The notes beneath the pieces were generated by a model. It was given only the letters and a program-made list of their open reading frames with translations. It did no database searches and was not told where the DNA came from. A stretch of DNA of 32,000 nucleotides from Archaeoglobus fulgidus DSM 4304 (lineage in GTDB: Archaea > Halobacteriota > Archaeoglobi > Archaeoglobales > Archaeoglobaceae), in contig NC_000917.1 in NCBI RefSeq assembly GCF_000008665.1, positions 1,950,001-1,982,000 of the forward strand, given 5' to 3'. The position numbers and the translations under genes were made by a program. This document shows, one piece after another, positions 6,935-32,000 of the stretch (positions within the stretch are counted from its first letter, which is position 1; each line of letters starts with the position of its first letter).

Positions 6935-7794
6935 AGAATTTCCGCAACCAGCTCAGCCACCTCCATCGGCGTCTTCCCCACTCTCGCTCCCGCAGCTTCA
7001 AGTGCTTTAATCTTCGACTCCGCCGTTCCAACTCCCCCTTCAATTATCGCCCCCGCATGCCCCATTCTCTTTCCGGGTGGGGCGGTTAAGCCTGCAACGT
7101 AGCCTACAACCGGCTTCGACATTTCTCTGATAAACTCTGCCGCAACCTCCTCATCCCTGCCTCCAATCTCACCCACCAAAACAACAGCCTTGGTTTCCTT
7201 GTCATCCTCAAAGAGCCTTAGCACCTCCACAAAGTCCGTGCCTATTATCCTGTCTCCTCCTATTCCAACAACCGTTGACTGACCCAATCCGAGCTTTGTG
7301 AGGTTGTAGGCAATCTGATACGTCAGAGTGCCGCTTCTTGACACAATCCCAACATTCCCCGGCTTGAAAATCTGAACGGGCATTATGCCGAGGTGCGTTT
7401 TGCCGGGGCTTATGATTCCGGGGCAGTTGGGGCCTATTAGCGTCGCTCCCGCCTCTTTCACCCTCCAGTACATTTTCAGCTCATCGTGAACGGGAATGCC
7501 TTCCGTTATGCACACAATAACTTTGATGCCAGCATCAGCCGCCTCCATCACGGCATCAGCAGCGAAGGGAGCGGGAACGAAGATTACGGATGCGTTTGCG
7601 TCAGCCTCCCTCACTGCCTCCTTAACAGAGTCATAGACCGGCACCCCAAGGACTTCCGTCCCGCCCTTTCCGGGAGTAACTCCGGCAACAATTTTTGTGC
7701 CGTAGTTGAGCATTCTCTCCGTGTGAAACTTGCCTTGATAGCCAGTTATTCCCTGAACTACCACCTTCGTTCTTTCATCAACGATAATTGCCAT
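6931..7794 (-). CDS. sucD: Succinyl-CoA synthetase alpha subunit
   Basis: [16 protein letters not shown] and the phosphohistidine loop MGHAGAII. Confidence 0.92.
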
Positions 7795-10890: not shown

Positions 10891-10974
10891 TGCGGGGGGC
10901 GGGATTCGAACCCGCGGACCCCTTCGGGACAGGGTCTTAAGCCCTGCGCCTTTTCCTGGCTCGGCAACCCCCGC
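10891..10974 (-). tRNA. tRNA-Leu (anticodon UAA)
   Basis: Reverse complement is GCGGGGGTTGCCGAGCCAGGAAAAGGCGCAGGGCTTAAGACCCTGTCCCGAAGGGGTCCGCGGGTTCGAATCCCGCCCCCCGCA. It has a 7-bp acceptor stem, anticodon loop CTTAAGA, a long variable arm and a GTTCGAATC T-loop. No CCA is encoded. A T5 run follows the 3' end. Confidence 0.92.
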
Positions 10975-19397: not shown

Positions 19398-20084
19398 TCA
19401 AAACTTATCTGGAATTCCAGCATTGTAGAAAAGTCTCAGTGCCATTAACGCGACAATGAGCAGATGCACCAAAGTAAGAGCTTTGACCCCCTTGGTTGGA
19501 AATCGTGTTAGCATTGGCTCCTTTGAGATGATAAGAGTCATTAGCGGCATAATGGACATAGTGAGGAGTGGTAACAGGACTGCTCCTGTAAACTTGTCAG
19601 TGTAGCTGTCGGGTCGTCCGGTTATGTCGAAGTGTGTGGCAATAGATTTGGGCAAGTTATTCCAGAGGGCAAGAAGGAGAATAAGATACGCAGCTAACGA
19701 AATCAGCTGGATTAAAAGATGTCGCTCGACTTTTACAGGCTCAAGCTGTTTTTTGGCCTTTGCAGGCATTCGCAGGTCCTCCTTTTCATAGGCTTCCTTG
19801 CCCACTCTGTAGCTTAGAAATGCTACTGCAACGATTATAATTAGGAATACAATAAGAAAAACTTGATCGGGGAGGTTTAGCAGCATGTTCATTGCAATAA
19901 GCACCAATCCTGCCATAACGCAGAATATGCCAGCAAAGGTGTTTGCTTTTCTCCACGCTTCTTTTGAAAGGTAGGTGTATCCCATTCTTACTCCGACATA
20001 CGGATTAGGTCTGTTTCTGAGAGCATAGGTGAGCAGCCCTATAATTATCAGCAAAAAGGACAGAAAAGTTTTCAAATCTTCCAT
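19398..20084 (-). CDS. Polytopic membrane protein with SdpI-like and DUF1648-like halves
   Basis: PYVGVRMGYTYLSKEAWRKANTFAG resembles the SdpI motif. LPKSIATHFDITGRPDSY resembles DUF1648. Six or more hydrophobic spans. It overlaps the upstream PadR gene by 13 nt. Confidence 0.6.
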   Translation of the reverse strand: MEDLKTFLSFLLIIIGLLTYALRNRPNPYVGVRMGYTYLSKEAWRKANTFAGIFCVMAGLVLIAMNMLLNLPDQVFLIVFLIIIVAVAFLSYRVGKEAYEKEDLRMPAKAKKQLEPVKVERHLLIQLISLAAYLILLLALWNNLPKSIATHFDITGRPDSYTDKFTGAVLLPLLTMSIMPLMTLIISKEPMLTRFPTKGVKALTLVHLLIVALMALRLFYNAGIPDKF

Positions 20085-20431
20085 TCTTTCACCTCCTCTA
20101 CTTTCTCAATTACGTTTCTTAAAATGCTAATTTCTCTTCTTAAATCCTTCAGAACAACTTTTCCGAGTTCTGTTAGTCTGTAGCATTTCCTTGGTCTCGT
20201 ATCCTCAACCCAGAAGCTCTCCACAAGACCCTGCTTTTGCAGACGCTTCAGAAGGTCGTACAGTGCACCCTCGGAGGGGACGAATTCTCCAGAACTCAGG
20301 TTTTCGAAAGATTTTCTTATGGCGTATCCGTGCATTTCACCGTTTTCCAGAATGTTCAGGACTGCATAGGAGTAGATACCCGACCTTATTTCTTTTCTTA
20401 GCCTCTTCAACACCTTTTCCCTGTTTCCCAT
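20072..20431 (-). CDS. PadR-family transcriptional regulator
   Basis: YAVLNILENGEMHGYAIRKSF...SEGALYDLLKRLQKQGLVESFW. The ATG at 20431 is preferred over the track GTG at 20440. Confidence 0.85.
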   Translation of the reverse strand: MGNREKVLKRLRKEIRSGIYSYAVLNILENGEMHGYAIRKSFENLSSGEFVPSEGALYDLLKRLQKQGLVESFWVEDTRPRKCYRLTELGKVVLKDLRREISILRNVIEKVEEVKEWKI

Positions 20432-20442
20432 AAACACCACTA

Positions 20443-20460
20443 ACTACGATACATCGTAGT
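20443..20460. promoter_or_regulatory. Perfect 8-2-8 palindrome ACTACGAT-AC-ATCGTAGT, candidate PadR operator
   Basis: Read directly from the sequence. It lies between a TATA-like ACATATAC (minus strand, about 20466-20473) and the padR start. Confidence 0.45.
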
Positions 20461-20480
20461 AAGTAGTATATGTAACTTTC

Positions 20481-20501
20481 GTATAACAATTGTATAACAA
20501 T
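20481..20501. repeat. Direct repeat GTATAACAAT x2 separated by one base
   Basis: 20481-20490 and 20492-20501 are identical. The repeat sits just upstream of the T-rich box at 20507-20515. Confidence 0.6.
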
Positions 20502-20538
20502 CCTAACTTTTTTAGAGCTCCTCACACCTGTATTTTTC

Positions 20539-20619
20539 ATGCAGGCATACCGCTACGAGTGCAAAGCTGAGGGAGGGCTGACGCATTACGTTGCTCTGGA
20601 TGAGGAAACACCCTTTTAA
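20539..20619 (+). CDS. Unannotated 26-aa ORF MQAYRYECKAEGGLTHYVALDEETPF, candidate precursor peptide
   Basis: ATG 20539 to TAA 20617-20619, ending 15 nt before the radical SAM start. A T-rich TATA-like box is centred about 28 nt upstream, which fits a leaderless transcript. The evidence is positional only. Confidence 0.3.
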   Translation: MQAYRYECKAEGGLTHYVALDEETPF

Positions 20620-20634
20620 TTTTTTGGTGGGACT

Positions 20635-21873
20635 ATGCTGAAAGAATTGGAGGTAAATGGTAAAAGGTTTTTCTTGGCTCCCGAATCCAACTTTTGGGCC
20701 ATAGGTGAGAGAGAGGAGGTGGAGAGGTTCTACAGAGAAAGAAAGGATGCTCTTCTGGAGGAAATGCAGAGATACCGATTTGAGGTTGACATCAGGACTG
20801 CTTACATCAACCCTACCGAGAGCTGCAACAGAAACTGTCCGTACTGCTACATCCCTGCCGAAATCAGAGAAAGGGGGACAAAGATGAGCTACGAAAAGCT
20901 TGAAGAGATCCTCACGGTGCTTGCCGAAAATGGTGTGGAGAGAGTCATTTTTCACGGAGCGGAGCCCTTAATGGTAAAGGATGAAATCTTCAGAGCAATG
21001 GAGGATTTCGATTTCAAGTACGGCATCCAGACTAACGCAACGCTGCTGGAGGAAGAAGACGCTGAGCTTCTCATGAAGAAGGGGGCAAGCGTTGGAATTT
21101 CCCTCGACAGCCCATACAAGGAGACGAACGATTATCTGAGGGGAAAGGGGCATTACGATGCTGTTATGAGGGCTCTCGACTTCTTTGATGGTTATAGGAG
21201 CTTAAATATTATAATGACGGTTAACAAGCACAACTTCCAGCATCTGCCTGCAATGGTTGACTTTCTCGCCGGAAAAGTTAGTGTGATGCTCGCAAATCCT
21301 GTAAGAGGGACAAGTCCGGGTGGAAGGGAGTTGAGACCGCCGGAAGGATTCGAAGATTACTACATCAAAGCCATTGATAGGGCGATCGAGAACACGAAGA
21401 GCGGTAGGAGGATAGTTATCGGCGATTTTGCCAACATTCTCCTCGGGCTGGTCGCACCCACGTCCAGAGTTCTGCAGTGCGACATTTCTCCCTGCGGCGG
21501 CGGGAGAAGGTTTTTCGCAGTAAGTGCGGACGGCATATACCCCTGCGGGGAGTTCATCGGTATGGAAGAGTTCAGAGCAAATCTTTCGGCCCTATCCGAC
21601 TGGAGCAGCTTGATTGAGAAGTTTGAGGTAGTCAGAAAGAGGACCGTTGAGCAAATTGAGGAGTGCAGGAATTGTGAGTTCAGAAATCTCTGCGGAGCCC
21701 CCTGTCCGGCGGAAATTTACGCCGAAAGTGGAACAATGCTCAGGAAAAGCCCATACTGTGAGTTCTACAAAAAACTTGCCCTGAAGGCCATGGACGTCAT
21801 AGCGAGGGGTGATGTAAGGAACGTTCTGAAGCTTGAAAGGATGAAGGCTATCTACAGGGTTGAAGATTTTTAA
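20635..21873 (+). CDS. Radical SAM enzyme with a C-terminal SPASM-type auxiliary-cluster domain (peptide/protein maturase class)
   Basis: CNRNCPYCY (CxxxCxxC) after an N-terminal extension of about 60 aa. C-terminal cysteines are CDISPCGGG, YPCGEF, CRNCEFRNLCGAPCPAE and PYCEF. Confidence 0.85.
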   Translation: MLKELEVNGKRFFLAPESNFWAIGEREEVERFYRERKDALLEEMQRYRFEVDIRTAYINPTESCNRNCPYCYIPAEIRERGTKMSYEKLEEILTVLAENGVERVIFHGAEPLMVKDEIFRAMEDFDFKYGIQTNATLLEEEDAELLMKKGASVGISLDSPYKETNDYLRGKGHYDAVMRALDFFDGYRSLNIIMTVNKHNFQHLPAMVDFLAGKVSVMLANPVRGTSPGGRELRPPEGFEDYYIKAIDRAIENTKSGRRIVIGDFANILLGLVAPTSRVLQCDISPCGGGRRFFAVSADGIYPCGEFIGMEEFRANLSALSDWSSLIEKFEVVRKRTVEQIEECRNCEFRNLCGAPCPAEIYAESGTMLRKSPYCEFYKKLALKAMDVIARGDVRNVLKLERMKAIYRVEDF

Positions 21874-21910: not shown

Positions 21911-23437
21911 GTGAGGAAAAGGTATGCTGCCCTGGCAATTGTCCTTGCGCTGATTTTGTCTCTGGCCCTACCAGAACTGCTTTTCCAGCTCTATCCCTCT
22001 TCTGCTGTACTTAATGTGGATAAGCTCTTAAATCCCCCACCTGAGAACCCAAATCCCTTCGCTGCGGAGCCTCCAGCCAACAAATACCTCGATTCGGTGT
22101 GGGCTGAGAGCCACAGAAACAGCTACTGTCAGGCAAGCTCCCCATTCGAAGCTCCAAGGTTTCCGGAAAAGCTGAGATTTGAGTACCTCACCCTCCGCGA
22201 TCTCCCCATAACAATAGCGTTCTCCGAGCCCTACGAAGACGGCAAGAGGGTTGCGTGGGTCTCAACAGTTGGCTTTACCGGCAAGATAGCCAAGATAGAC
22301 CTCGAAAACTTCAGCTTGATAGATGAAATCACTCCTGAAGGGCACAGAATGGGCATAAGCGGCGCCTATAGCGTTCTCGCGAATCGCACCTTCTTCGTTC
22401 CAAAGCTGAACAGGATATACGCTTACGGTGATAACGGCAGACTTTCCAGAATCGAGCTGAAGGGTGTCTTTGAGCTACCTGAAGTGTGCAGCGGAGAGGA
22501 GATAGTTGGAATAACGCTTACCTACGACGGAATGATAGCCTTTGCAACGAACTTCGGCAGGGTTGGTGTAGTATCGCCCAACTTTGGCGATTACGCCCTT
22601 TACCCAATAAACCAAAACTGCGAGATTGCCGAGACGATTTCCAACTCCATAGCCGCAGATGAGAGCGGTGGGATATACGTCGTGACAGATAAGGCGGTGT
22701 ACAGAATAAACTGGGACGGCAAGAGTTTGAGACTCGGCTGGAGGGCCGAATACCAGACTGGGGAGCAGAGGGGAGGGAGGCTCGGAAAGGGCTCCGGCTC
22801 CACCCCATCGCTTATGAACTGCGGCGAGGACAGGTTTGTGGTTATAACAGATGGACAGAGGCTCATGCACATGGTTCTTTTCTGGAGGGATGAGATTCCA
22901 GAAGACTGGAAAGGGATTGAGGGAAGAGACAGGAGGATTGCTGCTGAAGTCCCCGTAACATTCGGCTTTGAGAAGGATGAGAGCTACTCCGAGCAGTCGG
23001 TGCTTGTTAGAAACTGCTCTGCAGCGATAACAAACAACAGGCTTGGCTTGAGGTTGCTCGACCTCCTGCCAGAAAGGCTTCAACCATTCTCTATGCTCCT
23101 CTCTAACGTCCCAGGAATCGCTCCTTACGGAGTTGAGAAGTTCGAGTGGGATGCTGAGAAAAGAGCACTCAGAAGCGTGTGGGCGAGCAACGTGAGCATT
23201 CCAAACGCCATACCGACAATGAGTGACAAAACGAATCTCCTCTACGCCATAGGCCAGAGAGGTGGATTCTGGACTCTCGAAGCTGTGAACTGGGAAAGCG
23301 GTGAGGCTGTGTGGTATGCGCGAATCTCTCCCCTCCCTGCTCACAACAGCTTTTACGCTGCAACTGAAATCGGCCCGGATGGCTGCATCTATACGGGCAT
23401 GCTCTGGGGTGTGGCGAGGCTCTGCAACGCGGATTAA
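21911..23437 (+). CDS. Secreted or membrane-anchored hypothetical protein with beta-propeller-like repeats (508 aa)
   Basis: GTG start. N-terminus MRKRYAALAIVLALILSLALP is hydrophobic. Recurrent blade-like segments include GGIYVVTDKAVYRINWDGKSLRLGW, NLLYAIGQRGGFWTLEAVNWESGEAVWY and DGCIYTGMLWGVARL. Confidence 0.7.
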   Translation: MRKRYAALAIVLALILSLALPELLFQLYPSSAVLNVDKLLNPPPENPNPFAAEPPANKYLDSVWAESHRNSYCQASSPFEAPRFPEKLRFEYLTLRDLPITIAFSEPYEDGKRVAWVSTVGFTGKIAKIDLENFSLIDEITPEGHRMGISGAYSVLANRTFFVPKLNRIYAYGDNGRLSRIELKGVFELPEVCSGEEIVGITLTYDGMIAFATNFGRVGVVSPNFGDYALYPINQNCEIAETISNSIAADESGGIYVVTDKAVYRINWDGKSLRLGWRAEYQTGEQRGGRLGKGSGSTPSLMNCGEDRFVVITDGQRLMHMVLFWRDEIPEDWKGIEGRDRRIAAEVPVTFGFEKDESYSEQSVLVRNCSAAITNNRLGLRLLDLLPERLQPFSMLLSNVPGIAPYGVEKFEWDAEKRALRSVWASNVSIPNAIPTMSDKTNLLYAIGQRGGFWTLEAVNWESGEAVWYARISPLPAHNSFYAATEIGPDGCIYTGMLWGVARLCNAD

Positions 23438-27837: not shown

Positions 27838-27911
27838 TGCCCGGACCCGGATTTGAACCGGGGACTATGCGGTCTTCAGCCGCACGCTCTCCCTGGCTGA
27901 GCTACCCGGGC
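27838..27911 (-). tRNA. tRNA-Phe (anticodon GAA)
   Basis: Reverse complement is GCCCGGGTAGCTCAGCCAGGGAGAGCGTGCGGCTGAAGACCGCATAGTCCCCGGTTCAAATCCGGGTCCGGGCA. It has a 7-bp acceptor stem (one G-U pair), anticodon loop CTGAAGA and a GTTCAAATC T-loop. No CCA is encoded. Confidence 0.92.
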
Positions 27912-30402: not shown

Positions 30403-32000
30403 TCAGAAAATCTCGGGAGCCCTGAACTCCCCGAAAACATCTCTTAAGGCGTCAGTCATCTCACCCAGCGTTGCTCTCGCCTTCACAGCATCAAGAACGT
30501 AGGGCATTAAATTCTCATCCTCTTTCTCTGCAGCCTTTCTGAGCCTGTCAAGAGCCTCCTCCACCTTCTTCGCATCTCTGTTCTTCCTGAACTCCTGCAA
30601 CCTCCTTATCTGCTTCTCCACCACTGCTTTGTCAACTCTCAGTAGCTCAATCTGTATCTCCTCCTCAATCTGATACTTGTTCACTCCAACTACAGTAATC
30701 TCTCCCTCGTCAATGGCCTTCTGCTTCTCGTAGGCGGACTTCTGAATCTCCCTCTGCACGTAACCGCTCTCAATCGCCTTAATCATTCCTCCCATCTCGT
30801 CTATCTTCTCAATGTACTTCATTGCCTCCTCCTCTATTCTGTCCGTAAGCCATTCAATGTAGTAGCTCCCGCCCAGCGGGTCAACGACGTCAGCAACACC
30901 GCTCTCTTCAGCAATAATCTGCTGCGTTCTCAGAGCAATCCTCACAGCCTTTTCAGTTGGCAGGCAGAGAGCTTCGTCAAAGCTGTTGGTGTGCAGAGAC
31001 TGACATCCGCCAAGCACCGCAGCTAAAGCCTGCAGAGCAACTCTCACAATGTTGTTTTCGGGCTGCTGTGCCGTCAGTGTACAACCAGCGGTTTGAACGT
31101 GGAAGCGAAGCATCATGGACCTCGGATTCTTCGCGTTGAACCTCTCCTTCATTATCCTCGCCCAAAGCCTTCTTGCAGCCCTGAACTTAGCAATCTCCTC
31201 AAGGAAGTTGTTTCCTGCAGCAAAGAAAAAGCTCAGCCTTGGAGCGAAGCTGTCAACATCCATGCCTCTCTCTATAACCTTCTCAACGTAGGTGATGCCG
31301 TCGGCAAGGGTAAAGGCAACCTCCTGAACGGGCGTGGCTCCAGCCTCCTCCATGTGGTAGCCTGAAATGCTAATGGAGTTCCACTTGGGCATCTCTTTTG
31401 CACAGAACATGATTATGTCAGTTGCAAGCCTCAACGACGGCTCGGGCGGGAAGATGTAGGTGCCACGGGCGATGTACTCCTTAAGCATGTCGTTCTGCAC
31501 CGTTCCCCTCAAATTCGCCCTCTCAACCCCCTGCTTTTCCGCAACGGCCACATACATGCTGAGAATCTGGGCGCAGGTGGAGTTGATGGTCATTGAGGTC
31601 GAAACTTTCCCCAACGGGATGCCGTTGAAAAGAATCTCCATGTCCTCAATGGTGTCTATGGCGACTCCAACCTTCCCGACTTCGCCAAGGGCCATTGGAT
31701 GGTCGGAGTCGTAGCCTATCTGTGTCGGCAGGTCGAAGGCAACGCTTAACCCCGTCTGTCCCTGCTCAAGCAGGTAGCGATATCTTCTGTTAGTCTCCTC
31801 GGCAGTGCCAAAGCCAGCATACTGCCTCATCGTCCAGAGCCTTCCCCTATACATTGTGGGATAGACTCCCCTCGTGAAGGGGTAAACTCCGGGATAGCCC
31901 AGCTTGTTCTCGTAATCAATCTCCACATCCTCAGGCGTGTAGAGGCGGTCAACCACTATGCCCGAGGATGTTTTGAACTCCTTCTTCCTTTCGGGGGATC
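30403..32000 (-). CDS. Methylmalonyl-CoA mutase, catalytic (substrate-binding) subunit; 5' end beyond the window
   Basis: [23 protein letters not shown] and HVQTAG. The frame stays open upstream of the track GTG (..[25 protein letters not shown]) to position 32000, so the true start is off-window. Confidence 0.9.

Follow-up and report, generated by a model that had tools for sequence, protein, structure and literature searches.

A 32,000-nucleotide stretch of Archaeoglobus fulgidus DSM 4304 (NC_000917.1, positions 1,950,001 to 1,982,000), here called the window and numbered from its first letter, contains a small open reading frame (ORF) directly upstream of a gene for a radical S-adenosylmethionine (SAM)/SPASM enzyme. 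Comparative sequence evidence identifies this ORF as a genuine cbpA gene and no chance ORF, and it supports CbpA as the precursor or substrate peptide of the adjacent enzyme, CbpB, by which it is predicted to be modified. Because the pair belongs to the curated CbpA/CbpB family, established years ago, the finding as such is already known. What we add to the annotation is conservation in 95 of 100 loci, a conserved promoter, terminator and Shine–Dalgarno architecture, an archaeal operator candidate and the narrowness of the hidden Markov model (HMM) for the peptide. We consider the proposal as a whole, comprising the cbpA gene, a leaderless promoter, crosslinking by CbpB and a cobamide-related role, highly probable. 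The two genes are as follows.

20539–20619, plus strand: cbpA, encoding the 26-residue peptide MQAYRYECKAEGGLTHYVALDEETPF, predicted CbpB substrate (TIGR04164 match and conservation).
20635–21873, plus strand: cbpB, encoding a 412-residue radical SAM/SPASM enzyme predicted to modify CbpA (TIGR04163 match).

The cbpA frame extends from an ATG (20539–20541) to a TAA stop (20617–20619). It is open from 20476, and since no ATG, GTG or TTG precedes 20539 in frame, the product comprises exactly 26 residues. Against TIGR04164 (‘cobo_pep’, "modified peptide precursor CbpA"), it scored 59.8 bits (cut-off 35, E = 1.3e-16), with residues 1–24 aligned end to end to profile positions 1–25 of 25. CbpB reached 623.1 bits against TIGR04163 (‘rSAM_cobopep’, "peptide-modifying radical SAM enzyme CbpB"; cut-off 375), the second-best NCBIfam family scoring 98 bits, and homologues carry the same NCBI name. 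In gene order, spacing and core motif, the window pair matches the family as a full member. A Pfam scan of the peptide returned no match, and a second cbpA copy was looked for in the window and not found. An earlier sequence-only reading had proposed this ORF, with the same limits, ATG start and 26 codons and 15 nt of spacing to the enzyme gene, as a peptide gene for the adjacent maturase. All of this was borne out: the stop at 20619 and the cbpB start at 20635 give that spacing, both products pass the cut-offs of the paired families and the pairing is widely conserved. The description of the ORF as unannotated was correct for the gene track shown to that reader, whose size cut-off the gene does not reach, but the exact peptide is already present on four contigs in an NCBI-derived protein collection.

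Conservation was assessed across CbpB loci comprising 14 from reference genomes (CbpB 40–79% identical), five genome loci retrieved by exact protein look-up and 80 metagenome loci. The reference loci were drawn from Archaeoglobi, Hydrothermarchaeota, Nezhaarchaeales, Methanobacteriota, Omnitrophota and Thermodesulfobacteriota, and the fetched loci totaled 0.96 Mb of DNA. A first pass for small ORFs upstream of CbpB on the same strand, using the motif C-x(2-10)-G-x-[STA]-H-[YFW], detected a homologous ORF in 89 of 100 loci, and a wider look added six, giving 95. In the remaining five, the contig ends before the expected cbpA position. The pairing spans at least six phyla, from Archaeoglobi to Omnitrophota and Thermodesulfobacteriota. 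Among 30 representative peptides, C8, G13, L14 and H16 never vary, Thr or Ser occupies position 15 and Tyr or Phe position 17; the core motif C-x(4-7)-G-L-[T/S]-H-[Y/F] is represented in the window by C8-KAEG-G13-L14-T15-H16-Y17. Archaeal peptides end in ...[D/E][D/E]-S-P-F, while bacterial ones carry a variable Lys-rich N-terminal extension and a basic tail, for example, ...KKKMPL.

The composition of MQAYRYECKAEGGLTHYVALDEETPF is exactly as the sequence-only reading had described it, with one Cys (C8), three Tyr (Y4, Y6 and Y17) and an acidic C-terminus (D21-E22-E23). Its argument that these residues are candidates for enzymatic modification holds for C8 and for Y17, conserved as Tyr or Phe, but not for the three tyrosines as a set: Y4 is replaced by Phe, Val or Ile in some relatives and Y6 falls in an unconserved alignment column. 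Likewise, the acidic C-terminus is an archaeal feature, with bacterial tails being basic.

At the nucleotide level, we compared cbpA to its counterpart in locus L001, the closest relative (CbpB 79% identical). Seven nucleotide differences occur in 22 shared codons, all of them synonymous third-base changes and none non-synonymous. Among 83 distinct cbpA DNA versions, every synonymous codon for the invariant Cys, Gly, Leu and His is in use. Synonymous-only change together with this full codon variety points to selection on the protein sequence and not on an RNA or DNA element, and the comparison thus shows purifying selection on cbpA. Stops or indels in relatives, which had been named as evidence that would speak against the frame, are nearly absent. 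Only one of the 95 copies is disrupted, by a 1-nt frameshift in an A-run (L024, 177–261) that splits the peptide into MVLAYRLECTPKMEG* and ...SENGGLTHYVMLDEKSPF, reflecting either an assembly error or a pseudogene.

These data bear on whether the ORF is merely a chance frame in the untranslated 5′ leader of the enzyme gene or an upstream ORF with a regulatory function for which the encoded amino acids are irrelevant. Its position directly ahead of the enzyme gene would suit both, and 26 stop-free codons arise by chance with a probability of ~29%; the earlier estimate of (61/64)^26, about 0.29, is arithmetically right for an isolated ORF. With such a figure, the case depends wholly on comparative evidence. 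The match to a curated peptide HMM (E = 1.3e-16), amino-acid-level conservation across phyla with every synonymous codon at invariant residues, the synonymous-only differences to the closest relative and a promoter positioned for a leaderless start at the cbpA ATG all argue against it. The earlier caution that position and context alone support the ORF is therefore overridden by homology, including the 95 of 100 loci. We regard the comparative data as having effectively refuted a chance or purely regulatory ORF, and its probability as negligible.

The HMM match does not extend to the relatives tested. When CbpA peptides from ten loci (L002, L007, L009, L013, L014, L018, L020, L041, L060 and L066) were tested on TIGR04164, nine scored 13–31 bits and one gave no match, all below the 35-bit cut-off. 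Five relatives’ exact peptides, from Geoglobus, Methanoliparum, Methanonatronarchaeum and Nezhaarchaeales loci, were not present in a collection of 15 billion proteins. The model is narrow and, because the relatives’ peptides fall below its cut-off, cbpA probably goes uncalled in most genomes with an annotated CbpB.

The sequence around cbpA carries several putative expression signals.

20507–20515, plus strand: TATA-like, T-rich box cttttttag, centred ~28 nt before the cbpA ATG (sequence and comparison).
20481–20498, plus strand: operator-like dyad GTATAAC-AATT-GTATAAC, an exact repeat upstream of the TATA box.
20470–20476, plus strand: weaker third half-site ATGTAAC, 11 bp upstream of the dyad (sequence).
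20620–20625, plus strand: T6 tract right after the cbpA stop (TTTTAATTTTTT, 20614–20625), a candidate leaky oligo-T terminator.
20626–20631, plus strand: Shine–Dalgarno-like GGTGGG, 3 nt before the cbpB ATG (sequence).
Dyads upstream of cbpA in relatives, in locus coordinates: L002 3807–3824; L006 3782–3799; L016 5843–5860; L022 934–951; L023 7839–7856; L028 205–222; L031 3553–3570; L035 7794–7811.

The T-rich box lies where the sequence-only reading had placed it, and its suggestion of a leaderless mRNA gained support from relatives. All 15 short-form archaeal loci have nothing but A/T at −27 to −25 from the cbpA ATG, and in 13 of them an A/T-only stretch of 6 nt or more lies between −36 and −16. 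An archaeal TATA box at such a distance goes with transcription that begins at the ATG or beside it. The placement of the box thus supports a leaderless or near-leaderless cbpA mRNA, from which we infer the start site. Just upstream of the TATA box, a dyad with the consensus GTATTAC-N4-GTAATAC recurs in nine non-redundant archaeal loci. The pattern GTRNNAC-N4-GTRNNAC has 12 distinct sites in the fetched DNA, 11 of them 40–57 nt upstream of a cbpA start, and a single exact match in the whole window. By its sequence and position, the element at 20470–20498 looks like an operator and is a candidate binding site for a regulator.

Downstream of the cbpA stop, 24 of 30 non-redundant archaeal loci contain a run of at least five T within 12 nt. 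In bacterial loci, the equivalent place is occupied by GC-rich hairpins: about half have one with a free energy (ΔG) of −20 kcal/mol or lower in the first 60 nt past the stop (ΔG −20 to −39 kcal/mol, e.g. L076, L088, L065, L071 and L073). Oligo-T termination in archaea is the basis for reading the T6 tract as a terminator, and an excess of peptide mRNA over enzyme mRNA is common for precursor genes. Both the tract and the hairpins are candidate leaky terminators that would raise the peptide-to-enzyme mRNA ratio. GGTG, GAGG or GGAG precedes the cbpB start in 29 of the 30 archaeal loci, and the GGTGGG site probably marks cbpB as an internal, co-transcribed gene.

CbpB conservation was judged from alignments of 16 and 40 sequences. 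Both show an invariant CxxxCxxC motif (C64-x3-C68-x2-C71) and eight invariant cysteines in the C-terminal half (C282, C287, C304, C344, C347, C353, C357 and C375), by our reading enough for two auxiliary 4Fe-4S clusters. Pfam recognized Radical_SAM and Fer4_12 only, with no match to a PqqD-type recognition domain in CbpB or its neighbours. Its own family apart, the nearest NCBIfam matches include two thioether-forming enzymes, PapB and StsB, as well as anSME, with similar scores for PapB, StsB, anSME and DynA (72–98 bits). We modelled CbpB with AlphaFold2 from the 40-sequence alignment (predicted local distance difference test score 93, predicted template modelling score 0.91). Foldseek searches of the PDB retrieved CteB (template modelling (TM) score 0.71), anSME (TM 0.66–0.76) and also SkfB, ChlB, TigE and SuiB. 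The nearest solved structures by sequence are anSME (E = 1e-14) and CteB (E = 1.7e-13), in alignments that start only at CbpB residue 54–58. For the first 55 residues, among which P16, F20 and R48 are invariant, the model shows three short strands and one long helix; a divergent mini-domain for recognition is conceivable.

Among characterized systems, the best structural match of CbpB is CteB (5why/5wgg, TM 0.71, E = 2e-17), the enzyme of the SCIFF ranthipeptide pair CteA/CteB, in which a short Cys-containing peptide is likewise encoded beside the enzyme. The bond made by CteB joins Cys to Thr, and in CbpA an invariant Thr/Ser lies downstream of the Cys. The two systems differ in substrate and recognition: SCIFF peptides contain six Cys along with a leader to which an N-terminal RiPP recognition element (RRE) domain (~96 residues; RiPP, a ribosomally made peptide modified after translation) binds, whereas CbpA has one Cys and is leaderless, and CbpB has the 55-residue N-terminal module in which Pfam finds no PqqD domain. 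A leader of at least roughly 15 residues would be expected of a leader- or RRE-dependent RiPP precursor; the window CbpA has just M-Q-A before the conserved Y-R-x-E-C. Judged from its genes, CbpA/CbpB does not look like a leader- and RRE-dependent RiPP system and lacks bacteriocin-type accessory genes.

The closest solved relative by sequence, anSME (4k36–4k39, E = 1e-14, TM up to 0.76), acts on a Cys within a short motif and does so without recognizing a leader peptide. Given a leaderless CbpA and no PqqD-type domain in CbpB, the analogy suggests that CbpB recognizes the conserved CbpA core directly, as in anSME. However, anSME oxidizes Cys or Ser to formylglycine in a C/S-x-P/A-x-R motif of large sulfatases, whereas CbpA is a free 26-mer without this motif, and CbpB remains far below the anSME NCBIfam cut-off (87 versus 349 bits). 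We considered an anSME-like Cys-to-formylglycine conversion and set it aside as a minor possibility, CbpA having no C-x-P-x-R motif.

The same relationship raises the question of whether CbpB acts on a protein, as anSME and QhpD do, with the small ORF being incidental. One such protein could be encoded close by on the same strand.

21911–23437, plus strand: 508-residue ORF with a hydrophobic N-terminal segment, 37 nt past cbpB (translation).

Sequence proximity to anSME and the shared lack of a recognizable PqqD-type domain would fit a protein substrate. A homologue of the 508-residue ORF, however, lies beside CbpB in none of 100 loci, and L001 has its downstream neighbour on the other strand. 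Universal co-conservation with CbpB is seen for the small ORF alone, leaving hardly any probability for a protein substrate. No sequence match to the 508-residue ORF itself turned up in Pfam, NCBIfam or the PDB; it is an orphan, possibly a secreted or anchored protein.

CbpA/CbpB is predicted to work like a SPASM peptide maturase pair. In our proposal, a TATA-type promoter belonging to cbpA itself would drive a leaderless mRNA, whose translation would yield a 26-residue peptide essentially without a leader sequence, and cbpB, lying after the T6 tract and the Shine–Dalgarno site, would be co-transcribed through read-through. CbpB, as a three-cluster radical SAM/SPASM enzyme, would bind the peptide core directly and cleave SAM to a 5′-deoxyadenosyl radical. 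Within the invariant motif C...G-L-(T/S)-H-(Y/F), this radical would abstract a hydrogen atom, and the enzyme would install an intramolecular crosslink. The mature product would stay in the cell and serve cobamide (vitamin B12) metabolism, with cobalt or corrinoid handling, or service as precursor of a small factor, as candidate roles.

For the crosslink, the single invariant Cys and the similarity to PapB, StsB and CteB recall sactipeptides and ranthipeptides, and our guess is a thioether. A bond from C8 to a carbon of the T/S-H-Y/F segment is favoured because Cys is the sole invariant nucleophile, because the nearest characterized relatives PapB, StsB and CteB form thioethers and because the restriction to Thr or Ser recalls the Cys–Thr link made by CteB; even so, we place this chemistry somewhat short of an even chance. 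A C–C or C–N bond between His and an aromatic residue ranks second and appears rather unlikely, other chemistry making up the remainder.

Evidence for a cobamide-related role comes from bacterial loci. Genes of the nucleotide-loop branch of cobalamin synthesis (cob) are found beside cbpAB in 33 of 65 bacterial-type loci; among the 23 that extend at least 3 kb on both sides, 15 have them. L013 shows the order riboswitch, cobC, cobU, cobT, cobS, cbpA, cbpB, cbiB, cobD, and L064 the order cbiMNQO-cbpA-cbpB-cobA. A cobalamin riboswitch heads the operon in seven of eight bacterial loci tested. When Pfam domains were tallied across eight long bacterial loci, whole cobalamin operons emerged around cbpAB, including corrin methylases, CobQ/CbiA, CobS, CobT, CobU, CbiB, BtuR, CbiM/Q and TonB receptors. 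It is presumably this context to which the model name ‘cobo_pep’ refers. The bacterial setting therefore probably ties the function to cobamides and not to a bacteriocin, and CbpA/CbpB most likely serves cobamide metabolism, by extrapolation also in this archaeon.

Two types of additional genes recur in the bacterial operons. A Dph6-like ATP pyrophosphatase (PF01902) starts within a few nt of the cbpB stop in several of them, and an AsnB-like synthetase domain recurs near cbpAB.

L079 9290–9949; L081 9263–9901; L066 4581–5237; L091 2417–2974: Dph6-like ORFs, in locus coordinates.

The ORF at 7282–8874 of L013 was also listed with the Dph6- and AsnB-like neighbour genes. The substrate of Dph6 is a modified histidine, and one of the invariant CbpA residues is His; a Dph6-like or AsnB-like enzyme could be a further tailoring enzyme.

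Another comparison is with PqqA/PqqE and MftA/MftC, which give rise to peptide-derived redox cofactors. Their very short peptides have a minimal leader or none and are encoded immediately ahead of a SPASM enzyme, and they are housekeeping, vertically conserved systems and not antibiotic clusters. By analogy, CbpA might be a sacrificial precursor from which a small molecule is excised, which could serve as a cofactor, as the lower ligand of a cobamide or to bind cobalt. In line with this, cbpAB shares the near-leaderless peptide, the vertical conservation and the housekeeping context and is embedded in cobalamin pathway operons; a Dph6-like gene is found in ten further bacterial loci, directly after cbpB in L066, L079, L081 and L091, and the Dph6-like and recurring AsnB-like proteins are possible tailoring enzymes. 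The pyrroloquinoline quinone (PQQ) and mycofactocin systems, however, need a PqqD/MftB chaperone, a peptidase and tailoring genes, none of which is conserved with archaeal cbpAB. Their key residues, Glu/Tyr or a C-terminal Val-Tyr, also differ from those of CbpA. No PQQ-type accessory gene is conserved in archaeal loci, and in bacterial loci the Dph6- and AsnB-like genes recur with no peptidase seen. The archaeal cassettes consist of two genes only, and CbpA conservation spans ~20 residues, the tail included within each domain of life, suggesting that the whole peptide matters. Excision of a small molecule from CbpA is therefore unlikely in our assessment.

The genes next to cbpAB in the window suggest a further alternative.

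20072–20440, minus strand: PadR-family regulator, divergent and upstream of cbpA (Pfam).
19398–20084, minus strand: 228-residue membrane protein with SdpI and DUF1648 domains (Pfam).

SdpI is an immunity protein in Bacillus. With the SdpI/DUF1648 protein and PadR encoded divergently upstream and a short Cys peptide beside a SPASM enzyme structurally nearest the thioether-forming CteB, CbpA could be a secreted antimicrobial RiPP of the sactipeptide or ranthipeptide type, with PadR as its regulator and the SdpI-like protein conferring immunity. Synteny speaks against such a cluster. The PadR and SdpI/DUF1648 genes, which overlap by 13 nt, are by synteny unrelated to cbpAB, and neither they nor the 508-residue ORF accompany cbpAB in any other locus. 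We examined all three as system parts and rejected them, since tblastn found none beside cbpAB elsewhere. Nor is the PadR gene conserved together with the cbpA dyad. A wider NCBIfam scan of 80 neighbouring ORFs from the 14 reference loci (L001–L014) revealed no family common to more than two of them, and the neighbour scans showed no conserved exporter, protease or immunity gene next to cbpAB. The lack of a recurring exporter or leader protease, the three residues ahead of the conserved core, the retention of this core between archaea and bacteria, unlike in fast-evolving bacteriocins, and the location of bacterial cbpAB inside riboswitch-controlled cobalamin operons make an antimicrobial role very unlikely. 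In the window, cbpAB is a stand-alone two-gene cassette.

Several points weigh against our proposal for the archaeal pair. The window copy does not share the cobalamin-operon context of bacterial members: tblastn of the window with CobC, CobU, CobT, CobS, CbiB and CobD gave no match, and a riboswitch scan of the window detected no cobalamin riboswitch. Because of this, the B12 link for this archaeon is extrapolated from bacteria. A cobalamin gene is adjacent in only three of 35 archaeal-type loci, and cobT adjoins cbpB only in Methanoliparum, where it follows cbpB, and in one relative. A literature search found no published characterization of CbpA/CbpB. What we infer is translation, where the transcript ends lie, which site is modified and in what way, and the B12 role in the archaeon. 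The crosslink type is a guess, as sequence similarity among SPASM enzymes gives no prediction of chemistry. If Cys and His were metal ligands, the crosslinked residue might not be Cys. Lastly, the T6 tract could reflect spacer composition only.

A broader reading is that CbpA/CbpB is an unrecognized peptide component of anaerobic cobamide metabolism, not an antibiotic-type RiPP, that in archaea is operator-regulated. We offer it tentatively and regard it as doubtful. If true, a crosslinked Cys/His peptide would handle cobalt or incomplete corrinoids or give rise to a small ligand, and archaea, without B12 riboswitches, would use a regulator binding the GTATTAC-N4-GTAATAC operator upstream of cbpA. 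Should the B12 link hold, B12 biosynthesis or cobalt handling in anaerobes would gain a peptide-derived participant. In any case, conservation of a radical SAM enzyme together with its predicted ~26-residue substrate extends from Archaeoglobi to Omnitrophota, and we found no reported product, reaction or phenotype for the pair.

Further features of the window were recorded. At a distance of 4 nt from the divergent PadR start at 20440 (minus strand) is a perfect inverted repeat, CTACGAT-AC-ATCGTAG (20444–20459), followed at about 20450–20474 by an outer repeat, TACAT...ATGTA; this is probably a PadR autoregulatory operator. Two tRNA genes on the minus strand, at 10891–10974 and 27838–27911, were the sole Rfam matches in the window at the gathering threshold. 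The start of the translation of an ORF at 30403–31956 (minus strand) resembles the large subunit of B12-dependent methylmalonyl-CoA mutase. This ORF lies ~9 kb from cbpAB with no evident link to it; if its identity is true, the organism would use cobamides.

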